Counted from the first letter of the stretch, positions 10,919-52,421 are shown. The stretch is 64,000 bases of DNA from Massalongia carnosa (GCA_965645245.1 OZ287076.1:1736001-1800000), one strand, 5' to 3'. Notes: a model not told the origin generated them from the sequence alone. A program made the numbers and translations.

Positions 10919-13414
10919 CTAGATACTCACCGCCATCTCATCGGCTGGATCATCACTCGCTGCCGCATCCCCATCTTCCCTCTCCATCATGCGTCTCCCC
11001 TTGGGAGACGGGGAACGTTTCCATTTCTTGTTTGGAGACAGTTCCTGGAGTGCTTGCTCATCCTTAGATACATCAACAACAGTCGATGAGACGGGAGACT
11101 CTTGTAGCGCCAGTTCGTCCTTGGAGGGATCGGCCATTGGCTCGTCGATGAAAACCGTTATTTGTTGATCCTTAACTTCCGTAACACTTGGCTTATTGAC
11201 GACGATATCCGGCGGTAACCCCTGCAGCGCTCGTTCTTGCGTGACTATATCCGTTGCGGGTTCATTGGAGAAATACCTCGCTCGCTCAAAGTCGATAAGC
11301 ATTACCCGTTCTTTTTCCTCGTTCCACAGCATATTTGGCCATCTAACGTCCCCATGGTCCACTCCCAATCCTTTTACTTCTCCAACTGTTCGCCAAACTT
11401 CCGTCTGGCTCGTATCGTCGTCTATCATCTTCCCTCCATAAGATAGCAAGAGCATATGCTTTATTTTGACGTCTAGGTCAAGGTAGTAGGAGCGACGGAG
11501 ATTAATGTTCCCTAGGTAGACTGGAATCGCTGCTCCTTGGAGGGTTTCCAGCTGCTGGTACATCTTACCCTCGTGTAGTAACGTAGGTATGAAAGCCCGT
11601 ACCGTTCCTTTGCCAACGAAGACGTAGCCGTGCGAAGTGAGCGCAATCCAGAAAAGAGCTCCTCGGGCTCCTTGCACATCAAGCGAGTGGCAATCAACGT
11701 CCAGAGTCTCTTTGAGCTGTGCTTGAATGAGTTCCATGAACGTTGTCAGTCCGATTGCGTGATGTGTGCCATCTCTAGGGTGTAGCGACGCATTGGGACA
11801 CGTTTCATCCAGGCGCAATCCTCGTACCATACCTAATAGGCAGTCTTGGGTGCAGTATTGTCGTTGTCTTCCCTGGCGGCTACTCGTACTGTTTTGGCCG
11901 TCACTTGGCTCGCCTCTGACCTTGCCGCGAGCTTGCGCTAGATTGCCCTTGCGTGATCTACGACTACGTGGGCTGGCGGGAGCGTCAGGATCCTCAGGTT
12001 CGTCGTCGTCAAGAAAGGGATCTTTGTCGTCAGAAGCACAGCTTGAGCTCATCCTGGCTCTTGCCTTTTCCTTTTCAATCGTCTTTGATCTGGTATGGTA
12101 GGGTGATTGCTTAGGGTTAGGATTCTTACGGCCTTTGTAGGACGAGGTTGGCGCTTGCTTTCTTTCAGTTGCAGGAATTCGTGCCAGCATGGTCTCCAAA
12201 TCAAGGTTCCACTTTTTCAATCCCTTCTTAGCATTATGACGCCAAGAATGAGTTCTTTGCTTCGATTGAAAAGACATCAGAGCCAGGCTCAATACCTGGC
12301 CTATGGCCGACTCCGGATATCTTTCATCGATTGCCTCGTCAATATCCTCACCAGGCATGGTCAAATGATAATACGCCGTGCTTGGGTCATCTTCTCTAAC
12401 GTGAAGGAAGACAAAAGCCTCACCGGTCGTAATGTAGCTATATTCAAGGCCGCTTCGAATCATATAATCAAACGTCTGCGTAACCACGGCGGCCACTAGT
12501 TGCTCCGCGGTATATTGCAGCCTCGCCTCAGTGACGGCCGGGTCTTCGCCTTCTTCCTTTTGGGGTGGCATTGTAGGCGTTGAAAGCAAGTAATCAAAAT
12601 CCAACGGTCGAAATCCCCTTGTCAGATTGTCGGCGGAGAGTCTGAACGGCGGTTTGTATTCGACGAGGAAGGCCAACTGGCGACTAGAATCCTGGTTCTT
12701 GAAAACACAGAATTGATCAGCGTTTGGTTTTTTGGGTCTTACTGAGGAATCGGATTCCGAGCCGGATGATGAGACTGATGTCGTAAGTTGAGAGCCTTGG
12801 CGAGGAGTTTGAAGTGCCATCTGTTGCACTTCTTCTGCAAGATCGCTGAGCGAGTTGATGTGATTCTCGAAAGTAATTCCTTTTTCCAACTTTAATTCTT
12901 TTCGAGCTTGCACGTTCTCGCAAAGATGACGGATGACTTGGGTGACCTGATCCTCTACCGCCAGCCGCTCGTAAAACTGGAGATCCCCTTCGCTCGTTAA
13001 TCTTCGTCCGCAATGGTCCTGCCCAATCCTTTCATAGTACGAGATGTTGCCAAATTTCCGCGGAGCTGGCCGGTCTGATGGGTGGAACCAGCAATATGCC
13101 TGATCAAAGACTTGCTGTCGTACTTCGGGGAAGCTCTCCCAAGGACAGATTCTTCTAGGATAGTACCGATTCTTAGGCTTCGTGAAGCCTTTAGTCGTCC
13201 ACGCTAGATTTCTTTCGATCCTGAGAGCCTTGTGGAGGTGTTCATGGCAAGTCTTCAAGAACTCCTCAAACGTTGTCTCCTGTGCCCGTCGGTTTGATTC
13301 CTCTACCTGCCGGTTTGCCTGCCTTAGAAGTCGCTTAGCTTCCTCTGCTTCTCGTCTTGATTGGTTCACAAGTTCCTGAAGCTCTTGAAGAGTCAATTCA
13401 GATTCAGCAGACAT
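10919..13414 (-). CDS. Spok: Spok-family protein (coiled coil + PD-(D/E)xK nuclease + Cys cluster + kinase-like domain), 831 aa
   Basis: Intronless ORF. N-terminal coiled coil followed by TTFEEFLKTCHEHLHKAL...RYYPRRICPWESF. Nuclease motif ADQFCV...LVEYKPP, then QTFDYMIRSGLEYSYITTGEAFVFL. Cys cluster YCTQDCLLG...CPN. Kinase HGDVRWPNMLW...LIDFE. Domain order matches Podospora SPOK proteins. Confidence 0.85.
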   Translation of the reverse strand: MSAESELTLQELQELVNQSRREAEEAKRLLRQANRQVEESNRRAQETTFEEFLKTCHEHLHKALRIERNLAWTTKGFTKPKNRYYPRRICPWESFPEVRQQVFDQAYCWFHPSDRPAPRKFGNISYYERIGQDHCGRRLTSEGDLQFYERLAVEDQVTQVIRHLCENVQARKELKLEKGITFENHINSLSDLAEEVQQMALQTPRQGSQLTTSVSSSGSESDSSVRPKKPNADQFCVFKNQDSSRQLAFLVEYKPPFRLSADNLTRGFRPLDFDYLLSTPTMPPQKEEGEDPAVTEARLQYTAEQLVAAVVTQTFDYMIRSGLEYSYITTGEAFVFLHVREDDPSTAYYHLTMPGEDIDEAIDERYPESAIGQVLSLALMSFQSKQRTHSWRHNAKKGLKKWNLDLETMLARIPATERKQAPTSSYKGRKNPNPKQSPYHTRSKTIEKEKARARMSSSCASDDKDPFLDDDEPEDPDAPASPRSRRSRKGNLAQARGKVRGEPSDGQNSTSSRQGRQRQYCTQDCLLGMVRGLRLDETCPNASLHPRDGTHHAIGLTTFMELIQAQLKETLDVDCHSLDVQGARGALFWIALTSHGYVFVGKGTVRAFIPTLLHEGKMYQQLETLQGAAIPVYLGNINLRRSYYLDLDVKIKHMLLLSYGGKMIDDDTSQTEVWRTVGEVKGLGVDHGDVRWPNMLWNEEKERVMLIDFERARYFSNEPATDIVTQERALQGLPPDIVVNKPSVTEVKDQQITVFIDEPMADPSKDELALQESPVSSTVVDVSKDEQALQELSPNKKWKRSPSPKGRRMMEREDGDAAASDDPADEMAVSI

Positions 13415-15511
13415 ATTTATGAAGTGGCAAATTTAAGTAGCGGTTTGGGAATGACCACATCGCTTAGGATGTTTGGGAGGTGTTTTTCTGGTAAGGTTGT
13501 TTAACAATCACCAGCAGCAAAATCAACAGCACTAGGCAGTATTAGGTGTAGACTTGTTTGGAGGGCGTTGTCCGGGGCATTGTTCTAACTTAGGGCTGAA
13601 GTACGAGTACCCCGCCTTGCCTGTTGTTCCTTTGAGATCTCAGTCAATCATACTTCACTAAAGATTTTCAAAACTCCTGAAAAAGTGGAAAACGCCCTGA
13701 AATTTAATCGTTTAATATGTTGAGGTTATCAAAAAAGCATTCGACGAGGGTGTCGTGACTGTGAAACAAGGAATTTCTGCGACTTTTTCTTGTCAACCGC
13801 GTGCCATGCCGCTCCTTGTTGCCAAGACTTGATTCTACCGGAGGGAGAAGCCGGTCCGAGTTGCAGCCTTGCCGTTCATATCGAGCCATTCCAATAGCCA
13901 ATATTGAGATTATGTCCGTCATGACTCGGTATAGAGGATTCGGGTTTATATATATAGTTTATTAGAGTAGCACAGTAGGTATGAAGCGTATTCGGTATAT
14001 ATTCCGTACACGCATCTGTAGCTCTCCATCCCTATGTACTCATCCTCCCACGAACGATGCTGATGCAACCCCACTCGGAACCAAAAGCGTCAACAGTTCG
14101 CCTCGTCATCGCTGGAGATAAGGCTGAAATGATGATCATCAACGAGCATGTCAGATGATCAACGTCCCGCATCGGTGCTATTCGGTGCTTCCGTCCGGAT
14201 GCGGCAGCCATGAGATTCCGATTTAACTTTCTGATCTTTTGATTCTGCAGGGCACATCCACTCTTGCAGTTGCAGGCGCGTTGGCCACAAGCTCGCATGC
14301 CTTGATCACTGATCAGGTCATGCAATCATACTATGTATCAGCGGATCGTATTTACCAGCGGTTAATGAATATTTCGAAAGAGACGATCACGGCTAAATGC
14401 AGAGGGAATTCAAATATAGTCCCTCACATGATTGCCACAAAAGGCTTAGACTCAGGTACCAAAACACGCGGGCGGTGAATAGTGCCAGCGATCCGGATCC
14501 CGATCCTCCCGACCCCAGCACCCCAGATTCCAACATTAACGTTGAGCCTAAGGCTTTCCCGCATGTGATAATGTTGGCACCAATCAATCAAACCATTTCA
14601 ATTGGAATTCAGGACCTGACTAACGTTTCATCCTCGTCTATTCACCAATCAACGACCCATCGCATTGCAGTGCAGATTAGGGTTAGGGATCCCATTCCGA
14701 ACGAACGGGAGATTACTCTGTTCCTTCGTAGTTACAATTTGTATGACGGAGTGCCTCTGCTGATATCCGTCCATCCATCCATCCATCCATCCCTCCCTCC
14801 ACCCATTCGGTCGGTTCGCTTCGGTTCGGAGTGAACATGCAGAAGAATTTCAACCGAACAGCAGGTGAGTACAAAGTAGGCACTCTGTAGGCTGCAGAGC
14901 CTGGCAGTGAAGTGATTTAACCTTATGCTGCTGCCCAGCGCGTGATGTGACGCCTTGCAAGCACCTCCCACACGCACCCGTTGGATGAGCCTGAATTAAT
15001 CCATTGCACGTTCATGGCAGGACATGCTTTGCCCTAACCCTTAGTCACCCTTAACCCCAAATTGTTTCATATACCTCCCATGCCTCCCCATCATTTCTTT
15101 TCCAGTCTTCTCTGCCCTGCACCCACTTTCCAAATTATTTCTTGCTCTTGTTCTTAACCTCTGTTGTTTCTGGAAAACATCCACTGTCACTATCCTCCAT
15201 ACTTGGCTGCCGTTCATCGGGTCTATCAATTCGTGTTCATTGGAAATAGTTCAAACACATTCACTCTCGTGTCCACCTGCGCCCGAGCGCTATTTTCTCC
15301 TCATTGCGGGTAAAACGTTCCTTGTCAAGCGAGTCGTAATTTGTCGCGAGGACAAAAAGCATTAGCTCAACCAAGCGATCTCCTTCACAAACCGGCACTT
15401 CTTCGCAGCAGACTCATCACAAATCCAAATCGCAGGATCTTGTTGGCCAAACAGTGTCATCTACCCCCTCACTCAAGCCAAAACCCCCAATCCTTTCAAC
15501 TGTTCGTCCAA

Positions 15512-17176: not shown

Positions 17177-19644
17177 GACCATCGCTTCAAAGCCCCACTT
17201 TCACCCAGTTACTGGTAAAAACCGCCGTATTAACGCCTCCAAAGGCCAGCCAGTCGGTCGGTCAGTCTTACAAGCCGCATTCAGAAAGCCCCGCCCACCC
17301 CTCCCCCTTTCTCGCAGCATGTTCCGTTTACCTATAGAGCACAGGCAAGGTCCTTGTCGAATTTTTCGGAGTTGGCAATTTATGGCTATGTATCTCCTTG
17401 ACGATGAGGGAGGGAAGGAGGGGGATCCGAGACTGGACCGGAGATTGGGAAATAGGAATAGGAGGAGGGTGGATTCGCTGGAGATAATTCTGAGGTTATC
17501 AACACACGGATTTTCTGTATCATAATTATTCACATAGACTTCAATTTATTCCTCTTTATAACAAATCGATTATCAGGACTCAAAAAGAACGTAGAAGTCA
17601 AGTTCTAATTTACAAAGTGAACGCGCGCTTTTGTCTGAATTGACCGATTGATAAAGACATCATGATACTTTCCTATCTGGGCACAGCATTTTCCTCCGAA
17701 CAACAGCCTCTACCGCAAGGATCAGCTACATCTGAGCTGCTCGTGACGCACGTCTAGCTAGGTAAATGGTAGCGTTAATATCAAATTCATCGTCGTCATA
17801 AAAAACACCAAACGATACCTGTAAAAATCCCTTTCACTATTTAGAGTTACGTAGCATCATCTCTTCATGATATGTACAACCAGGGCAGAAGTTGAGATAG
17901 TCTTCAATCGCTTAACCACTTTTCTCGTCCGCGGTATGAGCTACGATGGCCGTCTCGAACACTGTCAACGCACCGTTTCTGTCCATTTCGCTCGCTCTTG
18001 ACCCTTCAGCCTAAAGACTGACGGAACCTTAAGTTCCCACGTTATCTATCAATGTATCGCTAGAGCTCCTCAACCCCTTACGGTCTGCTCATGGCACACC
18101 ATTCTGCATCCGCGACAAGCTCTGCAACAAAACCGCTTTGAGATCATCGACAAATTGACCAATACCATCATCCCCCAAGTAGCGAAGAGAGCTAAACGAC
18201 CCGCAATCCAGCGACAGTTAGGGAGTTTGGACGAGCGGCTGTTCATCGCACTTATGTCACAGGTGCCATATGCCGTTTCGACGCCATTCGGCCCTCGATT
18301 GCCCGAGGAGTAGAGTACATCAACCGAGGAACCACTTTATGGAGTGCGAAGACTGAGGAAGGGAGAATACACTGTACGAGTCAGTAGAGCAGAGAACTCG
18401 AGCTGCCAGATTGGTTGGTGGCGACACGGAGCCAAGGAGGAGAATTTCGAGCCTGCAAGCGAGAGCGGACAATCGGGGATAGATTGCTCGTTGGGTCTAT
18501 CGGAAGAGTCGTCACCACTTGTGTTAGATGCCGCAGCGATAGCGTCAATTGATTTCTCAGTGGTGTGAGAACGGTTTCTGAATGGGATATTATGCAACAG
18601 AGTAGAGAGATGGAACCAAAATGAGCTCATAGTTTCACATCCAACATGCCTCGAAGCGTGTGAATCTCAGTTTCCTCGGCCCAAGTAAAAGGGATCGCAA
18701 GTAAAAAGTGCTTGAATCGACGCCTAGCCACAAACTATAATCCCGCCTCAGATTGACTTCTTAAATCGTTCGTCAACCGGTAAGCAAGCCTTCAAATTAG
18801 CGATTACATATTTACAATTAAATTTTCATTTTCAATCGATTCGTGACACGTATGGAACTAACGCGTGATAATCATGCAATTATTGCGCGCATGTTGCTTT
18901 TCATTGATGTTCATCGTAATGTAGCAGGCACGCATAAGGGAGCTCGGCGCACAGGTGTGCGAAATCGGCTCGGGTCCGTTGAGTCAACGGGTGCTCGCGG
19001 GGCTATGTCATATTAAGAGTCACAATGAGATTTGAAAGGGCGAAAGACGAGGAAGAAATAAAAAATGAGCAAAAAGATGTACCTGTCTGTCTGTTTTGCC
19101 TAGGTATGTTGGACAAGAAATCGAAGCTATTATTCCTTTCTCCTTTGAAGATCATCAAATACATCCAGAGGCGATGAAACATATGAACAAATGTAGGTAC
19201 TCTATAGAAGGAAGCCGTCAATACAATACTACTGCCTGTAAAAGCAGCAAGAGTACCGGTACTTGGATGGGATGAAACGGTGGGAAATGTGTCGTTTTTG
19301 TTTGTTGAGGCAATTGGTAAAGGGATACTTCGTTGTATTTACCCGTGAAGCACAGGGTCTCTCTGCCCACAGTAGTTGTTGTAGCTTCTCTTCATTCATT
19401 CATGCATTATAGAACTCGAAAGCGCGAGAAATGAGAATGGAGAAAAAGATGGCTGAGCGATGAAGAGAATCACTTACCCCGTCAATATTCAAAAAATGAC
19501 TTGCAGACTTGACTTTTCTCTCCTCTTTTGCGATGGATCAAGACTCTCCAACCAATGTTAATATCCTTATTGTATTCAGACAGGTTTTCACAAACGATTG
19601 TTTATGTGTGTGTTAGTCACACACATAACCTTCGGATCTGGGCA

Positions 19645-20805
19645 ATGAATCATCTTCTGCTTCCCAGTAGCCCTGCCCCATCAACTGTAGGAAAAGTCCC
19701 TTGTGTAGCCGTGGAAGAATATATTGGCAGGTCATTCCTTACATATCGAGCGCGGAAAGACAAGATCTGGCCGTCATCGAGCGAAGATGAAGGAGCTGAT
19801 GACTCTTAACCAGGATATAAGGTGCAGACCGCTAGCCCATCAGATTAAAATGGAACATCGATCATTGAGACTATTCAAGCCCTCTACGCGAATGGTTTTG
19901 CAACAAAATGAGTTTTTTGGAGCAAAGCAAAAAATGGACGAGGTTCTCATGGATGTTGGCACCGCTCTGGCTCAGCTTGATACAATTTTATTTCATCATT
20001 CAACCAGCGTGGATGCTGATGAAGCATTGTGTATCGGAATACTATTAGATCTCCCCGTCATGGAGATCTTGAATGGTCCGGAGACGGCAGCTTCAAGGAT
20101 TGGGAGAGTCTAGAAACTGATTGCAGCGCAATACGGAGGTCTTCTCAGAACATGCTCTGTATCGAGAAACCTAAAATGGAAGAGCCGGGCCTGGATGGGC
20201 ACCGAAGAGTTTGCTTACTCGCACTCACCGAATGGGTTTGTTAGACAGATTAATGAAATGGGAGAGAGAAAGCTCGGGGTTCCGGTAGGCTCCAGGCTAC
20301 TTGTGAACTGTTCAGGACTTAAATTGGCGCTCAGGTGCCCAGATGACGAACTAAGAAATGATGATGGAATCTAGTATAAGCTTTTCGCGACCTTCAAGCC
20401 TCTGAGTGGTCTTGTGCTGCCGATATAGGAAGTAGACTCATATGGAAGACGATCATGGGAAGGCTTAGCAGCCCAAGATAACCGAGCACACAAATAAAAT
20501 ATTTTTTTATTGAATCTAAAAGTCATCTTACCGTCGCAGAGCTCCCTTCACGACGCCACAGAACGATTGGCTCGGAAGTTAAAGTCGACACCCACTCACA
20601 GATCGATTGTTCAGTCTTCTGCCTGACAAAACAAGCATGTAGTGCAAAGAGGCAATCGTGGCATTGAAAGATCCTGCTTTAGTTCATCCTTATCTCGGAT
20701 TCGATTTTAGGATATTGGGGAGTTTACTGGTGATTTGTGGCTGATTGTTCAATCATGACTACGTTAGGACGTGACTACCGGCTAGTCAGCAATGGTGCGT
20801 GGACT
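19645..20805 (+). pseudogene. Internally deleted, degraded HET-domain-family gene
   Basis: N-terminus MNHLLLPSSP...VPCVAVEEYIGRSFLTY. Post-HET block HSTSVDADEALCIGILLDL...RV*KL with a TGG>TAG stop at 20111. Frameshifted PGL/WAPKSLL and terminal SQQWCVD. These match the N- and C-terminal motifs of a common fungal HET-protein family as I recall them; the central HET domain is absent. Confidence 0.6.
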
Positions 20806-21200
20806 CGCATGTTTTTCGGCATTTGTACTGTGAAGAATATAACTAGTAGGGATTTAAAGGATCCTAACAAAAGACCATATGTGGCCCTTTACCCGTAGAA
20901 TTCGTCAACAGCCATACAGCATTCGAGGTAAGTTATACCATATTGCTTATGACTCTTGGTTGCGTAATCTCGCAGATGGGCATACAATGATCGATTTGTT
21001 AGATAAGCCAGAAATAATTAAGGAATTCACAACGCTCAGATACCCGTCTAGGCATCATAGAAAATTGCTTGCTCTTTATCCTATATCCTTGGACCTCGAC
21101 AAGCAATTTAACGGATTGGTAATACTAGCCGTAGCTATAGAGTTCCTTAGTACGATAAGCAATTGGGTACTTATTGATCCTAGAAAAGCTTTGGAGACTT

Positions 21201-23023
21201 TCAAGCTGAGTCTGTGAATGCCGTCAAGCCACAGACTACCATGGCGAAATAAGATCCTGCGGCAGACGGTCTTCCGTTCGCAAGGTTCTCTGTATCAAAC
21301 CCAGTGTTCAAACAATATTTCACAGCGTCATTGTATGCGCTGCCAACCCGAAAGCGAAGTTTGCTGTTATTGATCGTCCTCTCTAGTAGCTTTTCTCGCC
21401 GCTCATGACGATAGGATTGGGGATCGGCAACTAGCTTACCCGTGAGAGTTTCAAGCGGCTCCCAGAATGCAATTTGCAGCAGAACAAGGCCAAGGGCATA
21501 AATATCGTAACTATTTTCCTCATTAGTGTCTTTTAGTAGAAATTAGGCGCCTGTGAGCGGCAATACCTCTTTTGAAATGGCATGCCATCTTCATGATTTG
21601 GATGACGATATTCGTCCTCAGCTATGTTATGTACGTTCTCCGAAAGTCCCTTGTCTCCGAAATCACGGGAGAAATCGAATCCGGTTAGATATGGGGAGTC
21701 GATATCAATCTCGAATGCTGAGTCTCGGTGGAAGAACAAAATGTTTTTGGCCGAGATGCACTTGTGGAGCATATTTACCTGATGGAGCCCAGAAAGGGCC
21801 TTTGCAACCGCGTGGGAAAGCTTGAATCGTGTTTCCAGCGGTGGTTTACCACCGTACCTCGCGCACAGGTAGCTCTGGTTGCGTATGAGTTGATCGAGAG
21901 ATTTCGGAGGATGGATGCGCGACGCAGAAAGCGGAAGTTTGTACACGATTCCAACTTCGGATGGATGATGACCTATGTGGTAGCCAACGCAGGTCAACGT
22001 TTTGAATGTTTCCGGAGAGTTTGACGACAGGAGTTGCACGAGTTTTTGAATTCTCTGGATACCGATTTCTTCAGCGGTTTTGTCGGCGGTCTTGTGGCTT
22101 AGGAAGCCCTTGCGTTTCCACTCCACCAAAACCTGTGTATTCGAGTCTTGAGTGGGCGTCCAGCTCGCTAGAGTACGAAATCTCGTCTCTCTGTCATGAA
22201 ACTCGAGCTCTCGGATACCTAGGTGTTTGTTCATGCCGCTCTTTTGACGAATCGCCGTGGCAAGGTTCTGCGACTTGAGCCCCGCCATCTGAGAAATATC
22301 AGGATGGATTTCGGACTCGGCGGCACATATTTCGGCCAAAGCCTCAGGGCTGTTTGAGTTGAGTGTGTCGAAGTGAGAGAGTTCCCTAACCTCTGTTCGG
22401 GCTCTGGTTTGAAGCAGAGAATAAAGCGCATCATTCAAACTCTTCAGTTCATTGACCAGAACCTTAAATTTTGCTCGGTCACTCAAGACCCATCGACATT
22501 TGGAAAACGCCGATATTCGCGCCTGGGCTGACTTAGCTATCTCGCGATATTGAGACTTGAGTTCCACCATAGGTGTCCAGTTGTTCAAAGATTCATAAGT
22601 CATCTGTTGCTCTGGAGTTTGAACACTCTCCGGCAACGCCATGCTACCCTCACCTTCCATCAACGACGAATCATCCCGCAATCCATATCGCGCAACGAGT
22701 TCATGCGCATCGCTGACACGCAAAGCAATCAAACAAATTGTGTTGAGTACCTCCTTGTCAATAAATTGGCCCTGCCTGATCTTCCATCTTCCCTCGTCCG
22801 CTCCTGTGGTTTCACCCCATGCGCGAAATCGGCAACCTTCCATGTCGAGCTGGATAAGCGCTAATCTGGAATCCCTCCCAGTTGACCTGAATTTATTAAT
22901 GAACTGATACCCAGCCTTCCCAACTTGGAAAAACTGATGAATCAACACCGGAGCACCCATGGTCACTGTAGCCCCTTCCATCTTAACCGTCAGGTAATCG
23001 TTGCCGCTTTCAGTTTCTGACAT
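21201..23023 (-). CDS. HeLo (prion-inhibition)-like domain + pseudokinase protein (MLKL-like architecture)
   Basis: Exon 1 23023-21567, intron 21566-21511 (GTATTG...CTAAT...ATAG), exon 2 21510-21201 (SYDIYALGLVLLQIAFW...AVKYCL...TGA). N-terminal HeLo signatures QLDMEGCRFRAWG and KCRWVLSDRAKFKVLVNELKSLNDAL. Kinase-fold motifs VLVEWK, LHKCISAKNILFF, PYLTGFDFSR, YRHP. The start may instead be the second Met at 22981. Confidence 0.88.
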
Positions 23024-23581
23024 GAAAAGTTTAATTAGTGACAGAACTTAGCAGATCTCCTGAGGGAAATGATAGCTGATCAATTCTCGTCGAAAGTTTA
23101 CTCTACCCCAGGTTTGTGTGGATAAAACTCGGAGTGCTCAGCTCCGACGAGGCTGGCGGGGGCTATGTTCAATGCTGTCTCATCACATACCTTGTAGGGG
23201 AGAGATGAGGCGAAAACTCGCAAGAAAGCTAGGCTTCCATTGCAAAAAGAGAACCAAATGCCCACTTTCCCACCACCGCCAGCCTAAGCCACTTTTTCTT
23301 GATAGGCGCGTTTCTGCTTCTTGTCGCTCTTGGTTTATTCTTCGCTCTTCTTAAAAGTTAAAATAAACCACGCGACGATGAAAGATATAGAAAAGAACGA
23401 CATCGAAATGGGAAAGACAATAACTCGAAAATGCGTTCATACAAAAATGGCTTTGACAAAGAATGATTTTAAAATGGCATATTAGCCTAGCATATGCCAA
23501 GCCTGCAGCATAAAAGCTGTCAGCCTTGTGTTACTCTACCCATCAGCCTTATTGGACTCCAGGATTTGGTCATATATCTTG

Positions 23582-26500
23582 ATGGAAATATGTACAGAGA
23601 AACACCACTACTCATTAAGAATGGGCTCCAGCTTCTCCGGAAACCCATGGCAAACCACCGCCACTGACGAGACGTTTTTTCTTAACACTCTCCCCGCTAA
23701 GCTCTCTAAACGAGTTGGTCGGACCTATGAGCTAGATTTAATGACTTTTCATGCGTTCTTTAATTTAATCACAAGTTATGTGGTTGATTTTCCCGCGATT
23801 CCTCGCGAACCTGGGTTATCGAAGGCGTTGGGTAACGTTACCGGCAAGGGTGAGGTTGTTCGAGCCACTGGTTCCTCTATCAAGAAACGCACTTTGGTGG
23901 CATTCCGCGGGGCTTCGAAAACCACTGAGCACGATATTCGGCCGTTTATTACGGAACTGTTGGTGCTCCTCCATCCTTACCTTCGACAGGAGCCTCATAT
24001 TGTGAATCTTGTTGGTTTTGAATGGGAAGCCTCTGAACCTCTGAATCGCATAGACTATGCAACCGAAATCTGGCCAGTTCTGAAAATTGAGTTCGGTGAT
24101 CATGAGACAATAGATAATTTCCTCGAATCCAAAGTTCTGGAAGACACGTTGCACTTAAGGCGAAGTCTCTGCCAGCACATTGGCACAGGACTTAAAGCGC
24201 TTCATAAGTGCCATATAGTAGGTCTATTCAACAAAATAGCACGACTTACTCATTCCTTCTAACACGATTCTATCTTCGAACAGGTACATGGGGATCTGAA
24301 GCCTAAGAATATTGTTATATTTCGAGCTGATACCGAGCTAGGGTTCGTTGCAAAACTGTGTGACTTCGACCTTTCCCTCATCGTCAATTTACTAGATAAG
24401 AATCCAGTGAAGCTACCAGGCCACAGCGAACCTTGGACTGCACCAGAAGGGAAAACGTTAAAAGTGGCCTCGGATTTCTTTTTATCTGACGTCTATTCTT
24501 TTGGCTTGATTGTCTGGAGTTGTTTTACAGTTGATCAAGAGTATTTTGAGCCGAGAAGTATACAAGCTGGTGCAGGTATCATGATTTTGAAAGCACAAGA
24601 CAAGGTTTTAAATACAGCATATTCATCGATACGCTCCACCTTGCTATCTTTGAAACCCGGGAGGAATACTCGTGAAGAATTGGAAACTTTCTGCAACGAT
24701 TTATTGGAAGTTTTCAAGAATACATTGACTTTCGACCCTCAGCTTCGAAGTCTTAATAATGCAGTCGCTTATCTGTCCTCATATCAGCCCACACCGCTCA
24801 GGTAAAGCTCGGTTCATGGCCTTAGAAGATCGTGCTTACTGATAAAAGAGTCTCTGCAGCGAAAACTTCTCATCAGTTTCACCCGAGTGGCCACCAATAT
24901 ACTATTTCCCTCTACGAATGATGGCCCAAGACACTATACTTGTGAAAATCATTTGTTTCTATTAAAGCTTCGTCGCTGATACGAAGCCAGAAGAACCTTC
25001 ATGGTAACAATTACTACGAGATCCCAGGTTCTCGTGCCGTTGCTAAAGCTTCGGTCTCTACATGCGAACACGTATTTTCCCGGCCGGAGTACGAGTCATT
25101 TATGTTACGTTCAGATGCAGCGGCGTTTCTCTTCAGGTGTCATCTTGAGGGTTATGGAGTTCCGATGCTGAGCAATAGTCATGAAACGGCGCTTAGATGG
25201 CTCTCAAAAGCCTTGGATGTGGAAATTGAAAACAAAGAACAACCAGCCCCTTGGCTAATGGAAGTAGATTTGATTTATGAACGACTTGGATTCTCTATGC
25301 CATTGAAGACAGGTCTTAAAGAACTCATTCAACGAGCGATTATGATACATTTGTCGGAGCCATATTACTCCCAATGGGCCATCAAAAGGGTCTGCAACAA
25401 GCATCGAATAGATTTTGAGCAGATTTTTGAGCACTTCCGGGACCAAGGACTATTCGCTTTAGGGTTGTTTGATGAGGAAATCACGGCATTATTTAAGGGT
25501 AAGAAATCCTGTCAGCAAATATTGCAAACATTAGACCCCAAGGAACGGCTTTCGAGGAATGGGTATACTATGGTTCATCTTGCCGCATCATGTGGAAACT
25601 TGGACATTTTAAACCTACTATATCGAAGGTACCAAGCTGATCTCAATGTCATGGACGATATGGGTATCACTCCAATCTGGCTTGCAATTCACTACTCCCA
25701 TGCAAATGTCGTTGAATGGCTTATTCACCAAAATGTGCCTGCGAACTCGCTTTTCCTTAGGGGAGGATCATCCTTTGCAATATTGCCACGCTTTCGAGAC
25801 GACGAGCATACTAAAGTAGCTGCTGCGCTCTCCCTCGGTGGTTGCGACATAAATGACTCTATAGCAATTACAAACGCCTCATATACCCTACAAATATTGT
25901 CCTGGGCGGCAGTCTTTACGCACCCGAATATCGTGCAAATTAGTATGCTCCCTAGATCGTATCAGTCATTTTTCTTGACGCTTATTTGACAGCAGTTTTG
26001 GACCAAGAGCCATCCGATGTGTCATGCGCGTATGCAATGGGATGGGCAGCCTCGGTGTGTCAATTGGAAAATTTTCTTCTGATCGAAAGCCATCGTCGTA
26101 ATCATTTCCAGTACGCTCGAACTCGAACTGAAATGGCAAATTACCTTCGCTTGGCCGTGACACAACCTCCTTTTGCCAGGCTTTGCAACTCGTCTAAGCC
26201 CAGCTTTCGGCAGTGCGTCGAACTATTTTGCAGCGAAACTGGGAATATTTCCAAGGAACTATTACTAACTTGGGCTACCTATGCCATTCAGGGTGGCGAC
26301 TTCGAATCATTTGAAATTATCCTATCACATACAGGGATCGAACAACTTAAGGATAGAATGCCGCTTCCCGAAGACGCAAATAATGGGCTCAGGGGCTTGG
26401 TAGAGCACGCTCTGATGTTTGATAGAAGAGATATATTCGATTTGTTGATTTCTCGAGGATTTGGCGTCACTGTTAATAGTATTGATAAACTATATCCAAC

Positions 26501-27668
26501 GCTTTTCCACACGGCAGCTCATCGAGAACTCAACAATGGGCGGTACTTCTGCGGTGTTTTAGCAAGTCATGGCGAAGACATCAAAAAGCGATGTGGAGAG
26601 CGAAACGGCCATGTTTCCGCTCTCGAGATTGCACTTGTTTACGGCAATCTGGATGTCGCAGACTTCTTGATTCAATCTGGAGCGCCGTTGGACTTCGAAA
26701 CTGGTCCCGAAAATTCTATTTTGGGAGAAATGATCATGTCCATGACCGAGGAAGCTGTCCCCAACATTGAATTTGTGCTCAGCCATCCCCAAAGCTCTCC
26801 TAGGTTCGTCGTTCATGCTGCCTCGAAGACAACGCTCCTTCATCGGGCAGCAGGGCCGCTTTTTCCGGCCAACAAGTCATGGCAGAATGACGCCAGCATG
26901 ATCAGAGGCCCGCAAGCCATACTTGAGATCCTGTTGAAGCACTATGCCGATCCGGTATACCTCAATGTACGAGATTCCATCGGATGTACGCCGCTACATA
27001 CTGCCGCCTACCGAGGCTTTGATGCTGGCGTACGCCTCCTCCTGGAGGCAGGCGCCGACCCATATCTTCTAAACTGCCAAGGTATGAATCCAGTTCTTTA
27101 CACCATGCCGACGTTTTTCATGGACAGGCTTGAGAACACCGCGTTTTTCTATGAAGGGTTCGACAACAACATCCAGAGCTACGCCATCGTCTCGAGAACG
27201 GGCCGAAATCTCTGCCGCGAGTTGCTCACGGATTGCAGCGGCAACCCAATGCTTACCGAGGTGGGCTTCATGCAACGCTTCCTAGCCTTCTTCGGATTCA
27301 TCGATTTGACCAAAGGCGACGACGAAGACTACGAACCCTGGGAGCTAGAAAAAAGCCCGCACATTTCCAAGTATTTTGTATCGAGACGGAAGGTCTGGCA
27401 TGCTAGGAGATTGCAACAGGAGAAACGGGCCCGTCTTGAAGAACCAAAAGCAGGGAAAGATAGGGCGACAGCTATGAAAGAGCCATCGCCTTCGTTGATT
27501 AGAGTTCTGATGGCTGCGATTCAAATATGGATTTATAGCCACGTTTTCCCTGAGGTACGGCGACTCGATGGAGTTCCCGAGAGTCGCCTCATCGAGTATA
27601 AAACAGACAACGCCCCAGTGTTGGACGACCTTGACGGAGAGAACGAAATCGAGGCTGATCATTGCTAA
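23582..27668 (+). CDS. Protein kinase + Sel1-like repeat + ankyrin-repeat protein
   Basis: Kinase motifs ITELLVLLHP, HIVNLVG, HI|VHGDLKPKN (intron 24218-24283), KLCDFD, WTAPE, SDVYSFGL. Intron 24802-24859. Splicing at 24942-25114 is uncertain but a phase-compatible path exists. Sel1-like CHLEGYGV...ALRWLSKA. Ankyrin repeats TMVHLAASCG, TPIWLAI, SALEIALVYG, TPLHTAAYRG. Intron 25943-25992. Alternative start at 23621. Confidence 0.8.
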
Positions 27669-28079
27669 AGATTTAAGAAATCTAAAGGTGTGCTCTCTCG
27701 ATGGCTTTTTCTAGGGGTTTTACCCTCCCCCACTTTTTCATTTTTTCTTTCTTCCATTCTTTCTCCCTTTCACTCCCTCGGTTTTTTCGGCTGGCAGGTG
27801 CGAAACTCGCATAATCTTGCATGGTTATTCCACTAGCGATGGGATAAAAAGGATACATTTACTACAAACAAGAGCGGATGGGGGTCAAGGCTTAAAACAA
27901 ACATGCGCTCCGATAACGGGAGAACGAGCGTATAATCGTCAATGACAGCCTCTCTAGCCCAGATATATGTGTAAACATCGATTCACTGAAAAAAACCGAA
28001 AAAAAAACAATCATAGCGCCACGAACAACCTTCCCCTAACCCCTAACCCATCCCATACCCTAAGGGGTAGGGGGGTAGA

Positions 28080-30428
28080 TAGGCCTGGGAAAGTAGCGCT
28101 AGATATTTCAACCTAGCGATATATATTATTTAGCGCTGTTTATCGCTATTTATCAATCATTTTTATACACCACACCCTGTAGATGATCAAGATTTCTTTC
28201 TGTATAATATTAATAGTATTGATGCAGCTATTCTACGTTCCTTTATTATCTTTTGTCACCTTCTTGTCATCCCTTCATTGTTGTTGTCAATAAATAATGC
28301 GTGCTTATTATTTTTTACACCCGGACGCGGGCGGGCCGAGCCCAAAAAAAATCTCGTACTTGATTGTAGATGACCCCAAGGCAATACATACATAATTATA
28401 TCATCTACTATTAATTTGACAGAAAATTCTTAAATCAAAATTATGGAAAACATCAAAGGCCCCGTCCACGAGCAGTTCACCACCGAAGCCAATGAGCTAG
28501 GTGCCTTTAAAACCACCCGCGTACGATGCAAACACTGCGGCCATTCCCTCGTTGAGCAAGCAAATAGAATGACAAACCATCTCGAGAAATGTCTTTCGTA
28601 TAGGCAGTCTTTAGCAAGAAAAAACAAGACTACGGATATCAGCGCAAACGTTCATAAGTGTGGACCGAGCGAGCAATAGAGGTTGGACAAGCTGGCAGGC
28701 ATGGCAATCTTGGCTGGAGGACCTTCATTCAGTACTCTTGGTAAATGGATCAAGCCTGATATGTGGGAATTCATTCATGCATTGAACACAGCATATAAAG
28801 TTCCTAATCGTCATCGTGTTGCTGAGGAACTGCTTCCTCAATGTTATAATCAGGTATCGTCAGATGTCAAAGAGCTTCTAAGAGATGTTCAGTTCCTCAA
28901 TTTTGTCTGTGACAAGTTCGATGATAAAGCACGTCGTCGCATAGCAAATCTATCAGTAAACACTCCTCAGCAAGGTGCATTCTTCTTACGGAACTTTCAT
29001 ACAAAAGACAAAAATCAAACAGCGTCCTTCTTGACTTCTCTTATTATTCCGGAAATTATCGAGGCTTGCAATAATGATCTCAGTCGCTTCAATAGTTTAG
29101 CTACTGATACTTGTGCAGTCATGAGAGTCATGCATCACTTGATGGAACAAGACCCACGATTTTCTCATGTGTTCTTTGTACTTTGCGACTCTCATGAAAT
29201 TCAACTCTTGTTTAAACGGATTCTTGAATTACCACACTATGCAAAATTGATAAAAAATGCGCAAGTTATTGTTGCTGGATTTGCTCATAGCAGATTGCAA
29301 TTGAGTATTCTTCGAGAGTATCAGCAGTCTTTGTACAATGGAAAGATCATGGCTTTAATTATTTCGGTTATTTCACGATGAGGAACGCAATATGGCCTCT
29401 TTAAATCCTTGCTTTGATCTAAGGATGCACTGAGAGCTTATGCGGTGGACACTCGTGCTACTCTTATGTTCAGTAAAAAGGACATCTCCTATTGACTATT
29501 TGATAATTTGTTTTGGCAAGCTATCAGTGATCTGGAGGAAAATCTTGCGTCTCATTCATGAAGCCCAAAAATTCTGAGTCAGACGAATCACACTTGAGTC
29601 ATGTAGTCAAACGATGATTTGACATTAAAGAAGCACTCACACGCTTGAAGGATCGACTCGACAATCATTTCCCTAGCTTGGAGGAAGTATGCAGATCCGG
29701 TGATATATGAGACGATCTCTATCAACAAAAAACAACCGACATTCATTCTGTGACTTTTTTTCTTGATTCGTTCAATGTTGATGAGCCTCTTGCAGCGGAG
29801 ATCTAGGTCAAAGTATTTTCTTTTCTGCGAAAATATATATACTGTAATGATGAAGCTTGGGTGAAAATTATAGAACACTTCTTTCAATTTCGAGAGAAAC
29901 AGGGAAAATTCAATCGACAAAATCCTTGCGACATTTGGAGTCTTCCTTTGATGCAACGTCTCAAGCTGTTTTGATAGCATTGCAAGTCAATTTCATCTTT
30001 GCTAGGTCAATTTGTGCATCGTATCTTTTCGACATCTGTCAACTCGGTGCCAAGTGAACGTTCTTTTTACGTTATGAATTACATCATTGATAAGTTCAGG
30101 ACGAGTATGGAGATGGAAAGGAGCAATCAGGTCAGTTATATCTACATGAATAGTAGGGTACTTCGACGAGTCAAAAAGTCAGCTACTGAATGATGCTGAG
30201 GAGCAGGCTTTAGAGAATGATATTGTCGCAATGTTGGAAGCAAAAGAAGAGATGAGATTCGATGAAATAGGGATGGGCGAGATGACTGAATTAGTCTTGT
30301 AGGCAGTAGAATTCCTCGAAATAGGTATAATCTATTTGTAGGAATGATTTTTATTTTCAAACCTAGCGATATATATCCGCTACATATCGCGAGGCGATAG
30401 TAGCGCTACATTAGCCGTCCCAGGCCTA
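28080..30428 (+). mobile_element. hAT-superfamily DNA transposon (2349 bp), non-functional transposase
   Basis: 11-bp TIRs TAGGCCTGGGA (28080-28090) and TCCCAGGCCTA (30418-30428). 8-bp TSD GGGGTAGA at 28072-28079 and 30429-30436. Subterminal repeat ACCTAGCGATATATAT at 28111 and 30361. Confidence 0.93.
28443..30193 (+). pseudogene. hAT transposase pseudogene (BED zinc finger, DDE core, dimerisation domain)
   Basis: BED finger RCKHCGH...TNHLEKC, FVCD, LATDTC, CDSH (CxxH), ISR*GTQY (W to stop) and C-terminal PSERSF. Interrupted by several stops and frameshifts. Confidence 0.88.
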
Positions 30429-32798: not shown

Positions 32799-34815
32799 TC
32801 AACCCCCCCCTTTTTTGGCCTCCAGCACGCCCCTCACGCCGCCCTTCGCTCCAACTTCCCTAGCAGTAACTTGCACCCCCAGATCCCCCCCCACGTTCAC
32901 GGTCACCTCGACCTTAGCGCCTTTCCCCACATGCCGCACAGCCGCTTCCGCCAGAACGCGGCCAACGCGCCACACTTTCTCCCGTACTTCCTCGGTCTCA
33001 TTGTCGCTGTCATCATCATCATCGTCTAGCTCGCCATCCTCTTCGTCAACTTCGCCGCCGGCACCGTTGGTCGCTTTCTTATGCTCAGCCCCGTGCTCCA
33101 TTTTCCGAACCCGCACTTCCCGTATCCCCTCGCAGACCTTAACAAGCACATCCCCACCCTCTTTACCCACGGCAAATACCCCTGCCCGCCGCGCCGGCAC
33201 CGCGGTCTCCGCTTCCAGCAACTGTACGAAAACACCCTTGTGCACGTCATCCGTGATGAGCAGGACGCCGACCGCATGGCTGAGATGCGGCGTCACCGTC
33301 ACCATTGGGTGCGTTGACTGTAGGATATCCTCGGGCTCGAACTCCTGAATCAAGGAGGCTTGAATGGCGGCGCCGCGGGCGGCGAGGGAGGAGGGAGGGA
33401 GGGCGGTGGCGGCTGTGGAAGGGGCGAGGATGCTGGTTGTGGGAGGGAAGAGGGATGTAAGGAGAGATGCGATCTTGGGAGTGTGTGACGTGCCGCCAGA
33501 GAGAATCACCTAGAGTGGATTAGATAACGCGATGCAGGCCAGGGTTTTAAAAAAAGCTGGATGTTAGAGGCCGGAGGAAGAAATACCTCGTTAATGTCTA
33601 AAATGTCCAGATCAGCTTTTCGAATTGCTTCCTCGATCAGGCGGCTGAATCCACCAAAAACCTTGCTGGCCAACAGCTCATACCTGCTCCTATTGATCGT
33701 GGAGCTGAAGTCGATCCCCTCCGCCAAGCTCTCGATGCTCAAGCTTGCGTTTCCCCCCAAACTTAAGGCTTTCTTTGTTGCTTCCGCTTCAAGCTTTAAC
33801 TTAGCCAGGCTCTTGGGATTTTGCCGCGGATCCGTCTTGTATTTCTTGATGAACTCTTTGGCGAAATGATCGATGAGCACCTGGTCGAGTTGCACCCCTC
33901 CAGCTTCGTAATCGTGCGATGTGGACAGCACGCTGTACATACCGCCCCTAGAGGCGATAACTGTAATGTCTGACCTCGTCCCTCCCAAATCGACTACCAC
34001 AATAATTTTGTCCTGCAAAACCGACTCCGGGCGCGCATCGTATGCCAATACCGCCGCAACAGGCTCAGAAATATACTGCAGCACCTCAACCCCTGCATTT
34101 TTGGCAGCAATGCTGAGCGCCTCCTTTTGCTCCTTGGCAAAGTTAGTCGGTACAGTGATGACGGCGGCGTTGACATTTTTGCCCAGGAAATCAGATGCGG
34201 AAGAAGCTAATCGACGGATATGGCGAGCAGTGATCTCGGAGACGGTAACAGAATTTGGAGTTTCGGATTTGGTATCATGTATGGAAAACGCAATAGTTGC
34301 ATCGTTTTTCTGAGGATGCGCGGAAGCATGGCACGGGGTGGGATCTATTGAGTCGAAACTATGCAGTCCATCAGTCTGAATTTCTGCCGCTGAAACTTCG
34401 TATCGGTGCCTACTCCTTGCCCAGGAAATCCCGAAAATATGCCACGGTGTTCTGCGGATTTCGCACTAGCTGAGATTTTGCTTGCGCTCCATGATATTCT
34501 TCACCTTCTGTGTAAGATAATATAGAAGGTATCTGGCGGTCTAGCAAGAAGGTAGTCAGTGGTCGACAGTAGGTTCAATGGGCGATATCAAATCACTCAC
34601 CCCCTTCTTCATTTGCTATGACTTCCGCTTTTCCTTCCTAGGCATCCAAAGTAAGATCAGTTTAAAACCTTCTGTGCGATTCCGGTAGATTTTTCAAGCA
34701 ATTCAAATATACATACCCCGGAAGTATACGCGATAGAGCTATTTGAGTTGCCAAAAGAAATCCCTATAGCGAAATGGTCCGTAGCAGCTACCCCATCCAT
34801 GTCCTCCGAAGTCAT
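32799..34815 (-). CDS. SSZ1: Ribosome-associated complex Hsp70 subunit Ssz1
   Basis: Five exons (introns 34638-34716, 34541-34600, 34359-34413, 33510-33586). Motifs GISFGNSNSSIAY, VIANEEGDRQIP, VDLGGTRSD, SGGTSHTPKIA, AARGAAIQASLI. Truncated Hsp70 C-terminus typical of Ssz1. Confidence 0.92.
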
Positions 34816-35971: not shown

Positions 35972-37225
35972 AGCAAGTGCCGGAGGTTGGCAACCCAGAA
36001 ACGGAGGAAGATGGGAGACAAGATTTTGTCTTCTCTATTGACATTTTCTATTGTAGTTACTTGGAAATCCAATTAACTCGTTAAGCAGTTAATTTGCAGA
36101 GAGCCAGGCATACTTCTGGTTGGATGAGTCCTGAAACAACGCCCTCCAAGGATTCATAACTAATATTGTCGGCATGCAAATGCTTGCACAAGACAATCAC
36201 CGAATTGCTACACACCTATTTTGTTACCGGTTCAATAGATCATACTTCAATTTCTATCATCTGGAATAGCTCCATCGAGCACTCTCGACCTACTAATAGA
36301 ATTTTGTGCCACAACTTGATATCTAGCCAGCGGATCCATAAATGCGTGGCATGAAAGTCAATTCATCATCTCGATTCCCTGGAAGCATCGCCTTGTTAGC
36401 TTTGTCATTGCTCATGTAAGATGCCTAAATTCAAGGTCACTGAAGGTCAGACAGAGCTTGGTCCCTACCAGCTTAAGCTTGGAGATCAGACATCAATCTT
36501 GTTGTAGGAATCCTCGTGGGCTCTTAAGTGACAGAAGCTGAACCAAAAATGAGTCACTTTGCCTGGCTTTTGACCTACATATATCTCAATCATGGATTGA
36601 TTATGGGTTGCTGCATGTTGATGCTGGATGATGGGTTTGGTTAATTAGGCGGCACGGCACGCTAGCCGAGGGTTGATACTTGGCATTCACGTGGTAATGC
36701 GTAAATATATCACATGACTGAGGCACCCGTGCGTTCACGAGTAAAGCTCTCAGCCACACATTTTACTCCCATCACCATCGAATTGATGATAAGCTGGATT
36801 GCCGTACTGCTTATGCATTTTTGATATGAATCATTGCCATCAGCATGGATCGATCCCTGGGAAGCCCAAGGCCCAGCGACTCAACGCCAAGCTCAGAGAA
36901 GAGTGTTAGGGAATGCTTGAAGAACATGAACAAGCCATATGCAGCTAAACTTTACAGGCAGAGCGTGGCGTACTGGTAAAGGATGCAGAGAACAGGTAAC
37001 AGGGTAGAATACCTGATCCCATTGCATAAATACCAGCCTCCCGAACCTCCAAAGGATGTGTGATACTTGCAACACCATGTGATAATATTTCCCTTGGCAA
37101 GAGGATTCCAGAACACAAAAGCGTCTACGAGTCAGAATCTTTGCATTCATATACTCCGAGGACCCTTCCGGAAAAATACCAGGGCACTCATTTTTAACGC
37201 CGTTGTTCCCAAGTCCAGCGCTGAC

Positions 37226-52138: not shown

Positions 52139-52421
52139 CTAACGTTCGATTGATCTTGGGATTCGTGACTTAGCCCGATGTACCATGGTCAAGAAGAGAC
52201 AAACATCCTTTATGAATTCCATCCAGCAATTGCTAGACTTTAAATGATCAGTGTAAATAGCCGTTGAGCGTGTTTTCACAAATTGAGAGCACTGATGTTG
52301 ATCTAAGTCGACTGAATTACCTCGTGATTGATTGTTATGCAACATCACAATGGATTGGCGCTTACGGCTTCTTTAGTCACGCATTTTCATCCCGCCCCAC
52401 CAACCCACAACTCGCCCCTCT

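Follow-up and report, generated by a model that had tools for sequence, protein, structure and literature searches.

Two neighbouring kinase-fold genes were analysed in a 64,000-nt stretch of the Massalongia carnosa genome (GCA_965645245.1 OZ287076.1:1736001-1800000), hereafter called the window. The window is eukaryotic and intron-bearing, and sequencing runs labelled 'lichen metagenome' contain it. Gene A, on the minus strand, encodes an N-terminal HeLo domain followed by a degenerate kinase domain; gene B, on the plus strand, encodes a protein kinase followed by ankyrin repeats. An earlier note on this DNA had read the two as a candidate fungal counterpart of the RIPK/MLKL cell-death module. 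Their divergent orientation and their coordinates were given correctly there, the last bases of the two stop codons being 21201 (gene A) and 27668 (gene B), but introns went unmentioned, although gene A has one and gene B three or four. The same pair recurs head-to-head in distant relatives, which suggests a kinase-controlled cell-death module in fungi.

Organization of the locus

The two genes are separated by a divergent spacer.

22982..23620, no strand: intergenic spacer, 639 bp between the ATGs; 558 bp if the alternative start codons at 23023 and 23582 are used

The previously reported length of about 560 bp holds for the alternative start codons, but with ATGs at 22981 and 23621 the spacer measures 639 bp. 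It is presumably a shared bidirectional promoter. Comparable start-to-start spacers, of 195-978 bp, were found at 7 related loci.

Both genes, in identical arrangement, are kept in a second strain (~1% divergent). In contigs of this second sample, X4, 66 differences and 53 gap letters were counted across positions 17695-23949, and 35 differences and 3 gap letters across positions 23944-28110. No divergent haplotype was seen between the two strains (~1% difference across genes A and B; n=2, too few for balancing selection).

Gene A encodes a HeLo-pseudokinase protein

22981..21201, minus strand: gene A, 574 aa, candidate MLKL-like executioner; exon 1 at 22981..21567, exon 2 at 21510..21201 including the stop codon
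21566..21511, minus strand: intron of gene A, 56 nt, GT..AG
22367..22936, minus strand: HeLo domain (Pfam PF14479), with the hallmark RFRAWGE at 22831..22811
21204..22189, minus strand: pseudokinase domain, with the intron inside the domain
Pseudokinase landmarks, minus strand: VLVEWK 22132..22115; HKCISAKN 21766..21743; GFDFSR 21682..21665; GLSEN (activation loop) 21649..21635; YRHP 21610..21599

The start of gene A is the ATG at 22981, an upstream ATG at 23023 being possible. An annotated homologue from Cladonia borealis, P0003, confirms the splice (which joins FQKS to YDIYALG), the N-terminus and the C-terminus.

The earlier note had made its reading depend on an N-terminal match to HeLo profiles, and this match is strong (E=8.3e-25; 88.2 bits, cut-off 23.2; positions 11-192 of the 205 in the profile). 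The kinase part is degenerate, as had been claimed: the catalytic loop reads HKCISAKN, without the Asp of HRD, and the DFG position reads DFS. Kinase-like Pfam matches of gene A were weak (Kdo 3.7e-5, PK_Tyr_Ser-Thr 0.004, DUF7580 0.03). DUF7580 (PF24476) scored 14.6 and 16.7 bits on the two exons, under its cut-off of 27; in our own scan P0003 reached 25.6 bits, also under the cut-off, and its precomputed Pfam list holds both PF14479 and PF24476.

An AlphaFold2 model of the orthologue P0003 (22-row alignment) had a predicted local distance difference test score (pLDDT) of 76 and a predicted template modelling score of 0.79. It consists of helices at 6-233 followed by a bilobal kinase fold at 260-565, the same order of bundle and kinase fold as in MLKL. 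A Foldseek search of the PDB with this model (E<=0.001) gave at least 500 matches, and all 47 listed are protein kinases.

Close relatives of gene A were sought in a 5.8-billion-cluster protein set by word-based homology searches and then by profile. Their count stayed at three: a copy with 99% identity in another sample, a homologue with 62% and the C. borealis protein with 42%. The closest named homologue is C. borealis JMJ35_010002. A metagenome scan with the gene A alignment found no relative. In the ESM Atlas, P0003 lies among many mostly Ascomycota clusters of 50-157 members each, annotated as HeLo plus DUF7580/PK_Tyr_Ser-Thr.

Gene B encodes a kinase-ankyrin protein

23621..27668, plus strand: gene B, candidate sensor kinase; ATG 23621 (or 23582), stop 27666-27668; 1248 or 1274 aa
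Exons, plus strand (3-4 introns): 23621-24217; 24284-24801; 24987-25942, or 24860-24941 and 24991-25942; 25993-27668
Introns, plus strand: 24218-24283; 25943-25992; 24802-24986, or 24802-24859 and 24942-24990; GT..AG ends, branch-like motifs
23831..24801, plus strand: kinase domain, Pkinase E=3e-9 on exon 2
Kinase landmarks of the N-lobe, plus strand: GNVTGKGEV (Gly-loop) 23831-23857; SSIKKR (probable beta3 Lys) 23873-23890; FITELL (alphaC) 23945-23962
Catalytic kinase landmarks, plus strand: HGDLKPKN 24287-24310; DFD 24362-24370; APE 24440-24448; DVYSFG 24488-24505
25117..25215, plus strand: Sel1-like repeat in the linker, weak (Sel1 E=0.087; 13.9 bits, cut-off 30.7)
25498..27113, plus strand: ankyrin region, Pfam blocks at ~25498-25734 and 26898-27113 (Ank_2 4e-11 and 3e-14)

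The second junction of gene B allows two equally plausible models, hence the two protein lengths. All four kinase motifs named in the earlier note (HGDLKPKN, DFD, APE, DVYSFG) are present. A check of active-kinase residues found HGD, Lys, Asn, APE and the alphaC Glu, and the kinase of gene B is likely, though not certainly, active. The Sel1 repeat named in the earlier note is weak in gene B, but its motif A..W...AA..G is kept across the kinase-ankyrin family, with Sel1 E-values of 2.7e-6 in locus L028 and 3.9e-5 in locus L052. Likewise, ankyrin repeats are present as reported, but Pfam sees two blocks and no long array.

The favoured start of gene B, MGSSFSG (23621-23641), fits the N-myristoylation pattern MGxxxS. 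It is not conserved in the kinase-ankyrin family.

A search of 1.84 billion representatives with the kinase exon gave 754 proteins at E<=1e-3, among which only gene B itself was high-scoring. An N-terminal Pkinase and C-terminal ankyrin repeats were found in 16 of the 17 long relatives scanned (1150-1841 aa). Relatives came from nine genera: Sclerophora, Thelonectria, Emericellopsis, Geoglossum, Lindgomyces, Exophiala, Fusarium, Clarireedia and Apiospora. Gene B is colinear with 15 proteins of this family, including the Sel1-like motif, and belongs to the Pezizomycotina kinase-(Sel1)-ankyrin proteins. The ankyrin open reading frame (ORF) as query retrieved generic ankyrin proteins only.

The head-to-head pairing is conserved in distant relatives

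Conserved linkage was the main check proposed in the earlier note. A metagenome scan seeded only with B-type kinases (gene B exon 2 and five kinase-ankyrin relatives) yielded 80 loci (808,185 nt in total), all of them turned so that the B-type kinase reads on the plus strand. A hidden Markov model (HMM) of the A type, built from gene A exon 1, P0002 and P0003, was run on the 7,246 six-frame ORFs of these loci. It matched in 21 of the 80 (E 1e-40 to 2.6e-5), and B-type kinases scored at most 12.9 bits on it.

Eighteen of the 21 A-type matches were upstream and divergent (minus strand), two were downstream and convergent, and one was a duplicate view: the match of L022 is the gene of L026, viewed from the second kinase of the same contig. 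All but this duplicate lay within 6 kb of the kinase match (20/21; 392 kb searched), and the duplicate fell in the 137 kb of distal flank. No A-type gene was found in 30 high-GC, low-GC or bacterial-type loci (279 kb).

By explicit classification, 24 loci carry a kinase with ankyrin repeats (kinase+ANK), and in 14 of these the DNA extends 1.5 kb or more upstream of the kinase ORF. A head-to-head A-type HeLo/DUF7580 gene was present at 12 of the 14 and an adjoining one at 13, the A-type gene of L006 being tail-to-tail. The only one of the 14 without a partner was L029. Its kinase ORF equals that of L028 in length and score; the L028 partner is 4.2 kb off, and the upstream flank of L029 extends for only 2.9 kb. 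By these counts the pairing is far beyond chance, and the linkage is conserved.

The 20 partner ORFs are tied to gene A by the HMM, with E down to 1e-40. In Pfam, HeLo was above the cut-off in 13 of them, DUF7580 in 15 (up to 50.7 bits), and both in 9. The kinases beside them carried ankyrin repeats in 15 loci and arrays of tetratricopeptide repeats (TPR; TPR_10/TPR_12) in 3, and ran into the contig end in 2. Identity of the partners to gene A was 22-35%, and identity among the partners was mostly <60%; they represent ~17 lineages. The paired kinases were scattered over the whole kinase-ANK tree, beside named Pezizomycotina proteins (NCBI). Because the partners are highly divergent and the paired kinases spread across the tree, the pairing is old and maintained. 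Deep conservation of the head-to-head arrangement is a direct observation.

Other arrangements were also seen. In L052, where the kinase-TPR gene (3504-5225) lacks an A-type partner, a HET-domain ORF (5488-6354, E=4e-20) comes downstream of it, both on the plus strand. The HET domain is another fungal death domain, and kinase-repeat receptors may pair with different executioners. L028 has a second kinase+ankyrin gene (9229-10716, minus strand) on the same contig, convergent with the first, and L019 and L021 each have two kinases in opposite orientation.

Features of the A-type and B-type families

Among A-type sequences covering the motif, all but L009 (HHD) have W-[LFMIV]-H-K-x, or HR-x, at the HRD site, so that loss of the catalytic Asp is family-wide. 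The Asp of DFG is variable (D, E, V, R or G). A-type proteins share a Y[RQH]HP motif and have [ST][ED] at one column of the activation loop. By these residues the A-type pseudokinase is conserved, and so is a potential phospho-acceptor within it. B-type kinases retain the beta3 Lys, the alphaC Glu, HxD, Asn, DFG and APE (54 sequences compared).

Divergence of the repeats was compared in two locus pairs only. Between L026 and L033, the A-type proteins were 97.5% and the kinase C-lobes 97.4% identical, but the TPR arrays only ~65%. Between L012 and L013, identity was 97.8% for A, 94.7% for the B kinase, 86.9% for the linker and 93.7% for the ankyrin repeats. The TPR arrays of L026 (11202-13733) and L033 (10687-13728), both on the plus strand, align in several registers, which suggests repeat shuffling in the putative sensor. 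Fungal sensors of the NOD-like receptor (NLR) type, in which NOD is the nucleotide-binding oligomerization domain, have fast-changing repeats, as in these TPR arrays (PMC9815663; statements from cited papers refer here and below to the available portions of their text).

Four loci carry a fusion of two kinase-fold domains.

L006 13464-15728, L025 2316-4673, L026 3877-6231 and L033 3800-6154, minus strand: kinase-pseudokinase fusion ORFs, 755-786 aa, each a single ORF

All four encode an active-looking kinase (HHDLKPxN, DFG) followed by an A-type pseudokinase. The pseudokinase part matched the A type with an hhalign probability of 98.8%, and no other part aligned; the fused kinase lies outside the B family. 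Each fusion ORF adjoins a kinase-repeat gene, giving three kinase-fold domains per module. These are fusions of the Rosetta-stone kind. In their middle region HeLo was detected in L033 only (E=0.0064, under the cut-off), the AlphaFold2 pLDDT was 45.6, and a motif R[LF]xxW was recognized by eye only.

Likeness to MLKL, RIPK and other known systems

A profile of 20 A-type sequences was searched against PDB sequences. The HeLo structures of HET-s/HET-S came first (2wvq/2wvo/2wvn, E=3e-21). The best kinase-like match was mouse MLKL (4btf, 4.8e-9, 38.5 bits; also 6vbz and 4m68), ahead of IRAK4 (31.6 bits) and 240 other kinases. A dead kinase, as in the MLKL family, is found in gene A (HKC) and in the A-type family. 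The label MLKL-like, given in the earlier note, is consistent with this search and with the family-wide loss of the catalytic Asp. In other searches, a single-sequence query found no MLKL, Pfam calls the N-terminus of gene A HeLo and not MLKL_N, and the MLKL cluster of the ESM Atlas appears for P0003 only at 0.83.

For the B-type kinase of L013, the closest among the PDB matches listed was LRRK2 (1e-14), then WNK1, MARK and ZAK. For exon 2 of gene B itself, the closest among those listed were CTR1, KIT, FGFR2 and RAF. No RIPK was among the PDB matches listed for either query, and RHIM was not searched with a model. Since MLKL tops the kinase-like matches of the A profile and no RIPK is among the B matches listed, A appears both to work and to look like MLKL, and B is a tyrosine kinase-like (TKL-like) kinase and not a demonstrable RIPK.

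The vertebrate RIPK3/MLKL pair shares with the module proposed for genes A and B an executioner made of an N-terminal helical membrane-attacking bundle and a C-terminal pseudokinase, and a partner that is an active Ser/Thr kinase. It differs in that no orthology is shown here, the RIPK3 and MLKL genes are not neighbours, and RIPK3 has no repeat sensor. RIPK4 and ANKK1 combine a kinase with ankyrin repeats, as gene B does. HeLo is held to be a relative of MLKL's four-helix bundle (4HB) (PMC12881547, PMC10197012).

Plant MLKLs and the wheat receptor pair R3NLR/R3AK (NLR plus MLKL) also show a sensor gene paired with an MLKL-type executioner (4HB/HeLo plus a kinase-like domain), and NLR/MLKL pairing is widespread within a plant lineage (bioRxiv 10.64898/2026.08.07.743466; 10.1101/681015). 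There, however, the sensor is an NLR with a nucleotide-binding domain plus leucine-rich repeats, whereas here it is a kinase with ankyrin repeats or TPR and no NOD, in another kingdom. The origin is probably independent of the plant pair.

In the fungal HET-S/NWD2 and HELLP/HELLF pairs, a HeLo/HELL executioner gene adjoins a repeat-bearing activator gene (PMC10197012, PMC12881547). Their signalling proceeds by amyloid templating between the NLR N-terminus and a C-terminal prion-forming motif, whereas the partner here is a kinase and no NLR. Gene A ends at the last kinase-fold helix and has no C-terminal extension for a prion-forming motif, for which no dedicated motif-model search was made. 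Fungal gasdermin/protease clusters (HET-Q1/HET-Q2) likewise place a pore-former beside its activating enzyme, which is often fused to ANK, TPR or WD40 repeats (PMC12881547). They act by proteolysis of gasdermin, in contrast to the kinase-pseudokinase engagement of a HeLo protein proposed here.

The Ascomycota proteins catalogued in Pfam DUF7580 as HeLo plus kinase-like have the architecture of P0003 and of nine partner ORFs. They are catalogued without a described function, and the partner kinase lies outside that knowledge. In Coprinopsis cinerea, the paired genes somA/somB, of which one encodes a kinase, are linked to non-self recognition and have divergent alleles (bioRxiv 10.64898/2026.06.24.733965). 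Unlike here, the partner is a NACHT protein and not a HeLo-pseudokinase, the fungus is a basidiomycete, and the kinase family is presumed to be different.

Proposed mechanism and alternatives

That genes A and B form a functionally coupled pair is highly probable. In the mechanism that we propose, gene B would be a cytosolic receptor-type Ser/Thr kinase. Sensing or auto-inhibition would fall to its C-terminal ankyrin repeats (TPR in some relatives), in analogy to the repeats of fungal NLRs. Gene A would be an MLKL-like executioner, in which a membrane-attacking HeLo bundle is restrained by the C-terminal pseudokinase. Once the repeats are triggered, the kinase domain of B would engage the pseudokinase domain of A and, most likely, phosphorylate the conserved Ser/Thr-Glu site in the A activation loop (Ser447 region). 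A would then free its HeLo domain, oligomerise and permeabilise the membrane. The outcome would be regulated cell death, in immunity or allorecognition.

We lean slightly towards this chain as a whole, from repeat-triggered B kinase through the A pseudokinase and HeLo release to membrane attack. The [ST][ED] site in the activation loop is compatible with phosphorylation by the partner kinase and is no test of phosphorylation. The complex predicted for the intron-free L013 pair (kinase 50-378 plus pseudokinase 255-575) had a median of 0.43 against 0.26 for the control and speaks neither for nor against binding. The earlier interpretation is partly supported: its comparative predictions were borne out, and the biochemical steps, that is binding between A and B, phosphorylation with its direction and sign, and killing, are what we infer.

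Several observations weigh against the proposed mechanism. Support for the module is wholly comparative. Linkage was counted from the kinase side only, and not from HeLo-DUF7580 genes outward; the related loci are metagenome contigs, several of them with a common sample-series prefix. When near-identical copies are collapsed (L012/L013, 98% identical), 11 of 13 kinase+ANK loci have a partner, and among kinase+TPR loci an A-type partner was found in only 3 of 8, all of one lineage. The lead of MLKL over IRAK4 in the A-family search is only ~7 bits, and in the Foldseek search with the P0003 model MLKL was absent from the best 50 of at least 500 ranks, which held ordinary kinases. No close orthologue of gene B was found: the next best match after itself had 41% identity and 86 bits, in a library that hides relatives >50% identical. 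Its own activity is not certain, because, alone among the 54 sequences compared, it has DFD in place of DFG, and its Lys aligns one column off from the beta3 Lys of the family. Finally, A and B co-diverge only weakly: the Mantel r was 0.42, a value that 10 of 9999 permutations reached. Two close pairs drive this signal, congruence is absent at the deep nodes, and we do not use it as support for co-evolution.

The order of control could also be reversed. In this alternative, B constitutively binds or phosphorylates A and holds it inactive. Inhibition, depletion or mismatch of B would then lead to death, and could be brought about, for instance, by a pathogen effector or, once hyphae have fused, by an incompatible allele. 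Such a system would be toxin-antitoxin-like or guard-like. The linkage, pseudokinase and repeat evidence fits it equally well, none of it giving the direction of control, and head-to-head co-expression from one spacer suits an effector and its brake. Nothing speaks directly against it; in RIPK3/MLKL, however, the sole characterised kinase/MLKL pair, phosphorylation activates (PMC12881547). Hypervariable repeats also suit a ligand sensor better than a constitutive brake, and we consider this alternative unlikely.

A little less probable still is that the genes are co-inherited and co-regulated, with A not being a substrate of B. Pseudokinases are often allosteric partners, and A could, for example, act in this way or as a membrane anchor and so tune the signalling of B to other substrates, with HeLo serving localisation and not killing. 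Another possibility is that A and B belong independently to a single stress or immune regulon. The weak co-divergence, the atypical DFD of gene B and the 5 of 8 kinase+TPR loci without an A-type neighbour all agree with this view. Against it, the pairing persists at 22-35% identity, fusions of an active kinase with an A-type pseudokinase exist, and the characterised HeLo domains (HET-S, HELLP) are membrane-targeting death domains (PMC12881547, PMC10197012).

Chance adjacency, for which the large size of both fungal gene families and a transposon-rich, immune-gene-rich region with one NLR-like and one Spok-like gene besides a multi-copy hAT-like element could be cited, is highly improbable given the same head-to-head partner in 12 of 14 independent-enough relatives and the 20 of 21 A-type matches within 6 kb of a kinase match, the other one being the L022 duplicate.

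Genomic surroundings

The following features were found elsewhere in the window.

6826-9777, plus strand: 983-aa ORF with DUF7779 and TPR_10/TPR_12 repeats, resembling a fungal NB-ARC/TPR NLR
10919-13432, minus strand: 837-aa ORF with a weak kinase-like C-terminal match (Kdo 6.6e-4)
28100-30400, plus strand: remnant of a hAT-like element (ORFs 28434-28679 and 28680-29381; DUF659 E=1.6e-13), immediately downstream of gene B
33506-34465, minus strand: Hsp70-like ORF fragment (E=1.4e-50)
37064-40003, plus strand: 979-aa ORF with a faint reverse-transcriptase match only (E=0.0075)
49375-51709: coatomer gamma
52377-53432: class II tRNA synthetase
56582-60241: Kelch-repeat protein
63271-63999: Raptor

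The 837-aa ORF was considered as a paralogue of gene A and rejected. Its nearest ESM Atlas clusters (0.96-0.99) are SPOK2_N plus Kdo proteins, the Podospora Spok family of spore-killer meiotic drivers, which is a lead only. It lies tail-to-tail with the NLR-like ORF. With an NLR-like and a Spok-like ORF in the window, the surroundings of the pair are therefore rich in immune-type genes. The region 28100-30400 is a multi-copy repeat, because contig depth there is 2- to 12-fold above that of the flanks and numerous variant copies occur in all four runs. The locus is chromosomal and not an accessory fragment, since ordinary housekeeping genes follow further on in the window.

Significance

Fungal death pathways are often encoded in clusters of two or three genes (PMC12881547). 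Known control of fungal HeLo/HELL proteins is by NLRs, through amyloid templating or an 'all-in-one' fusion, and that of gasdermins by proteases. According to the same 2025 review, some HELL proteins carry a kinase or pseudokinase domain 'reminiscent of MLKL'; in its available portions it calls for broader work on the conservation of necroptosis in fungi and names no upstream kinase (PMC12881547).

The pairing of a kinase-repeat gene with a HeLo-pseudokinase gene was found nowhere in the full-text literature searched, outside of which lie subscription-only papers and supplements. Such a pair is unmentioned in the available portions of PMC10197012, PMC9815663 and PMC12258605, and the term 'DUF7580' occurred in no paper of the full-text library searched. 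The analogues that come nearest are the wheat NLR/MLKL pair (bioRxiv 10.64898/2026.08.07.743466) and the Coprinopsis kinase/NACHT loci (bioRxiv 10.64898/2026.06.24.733965). The earlier note knew of no characterised fungal example, and for the pairing this agrees with our search; the HeLo plus kinase/pseudokinase architecture, however, is mentioned in the review (PMC12881547), and both protein families are large and were catalogued before. New, and undescribed as far as searched, is that a kinase-repeat receptor and an MLKL-like HeLo-pseudokinase are coupled head-to-head in a conserved manner. Whether such pairs amount to an undescribed class, that is to widespread NOD-less fungal immune or allorecognition receptors made of a kinase with hypervariable ankyrin repeats or TPR, each head-to-head with its own MLKL-like executioner, is in our judgement evenly balanced.

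The conserved pairing offers a concrete candidate for the missing upstream kinase of MLKL-like fungal proteins. The question thereby becomes directly testable through two genes, a single catalytic Asp and a single activation-loop Ser. The pairing would also define a receptor type in which a kinase, and not a NOD, joins the repeats to the executioner, with a bearing on the origin of necroptosis-like death, on fungal immunity and on allorecognition. If such a class of receptors exists, the kinase-to-pseudokinase logic of necroptosis would be no animal invention, but ancient or repeatedly evolved, and in fungi it would be packaged as a portable two-gene module.

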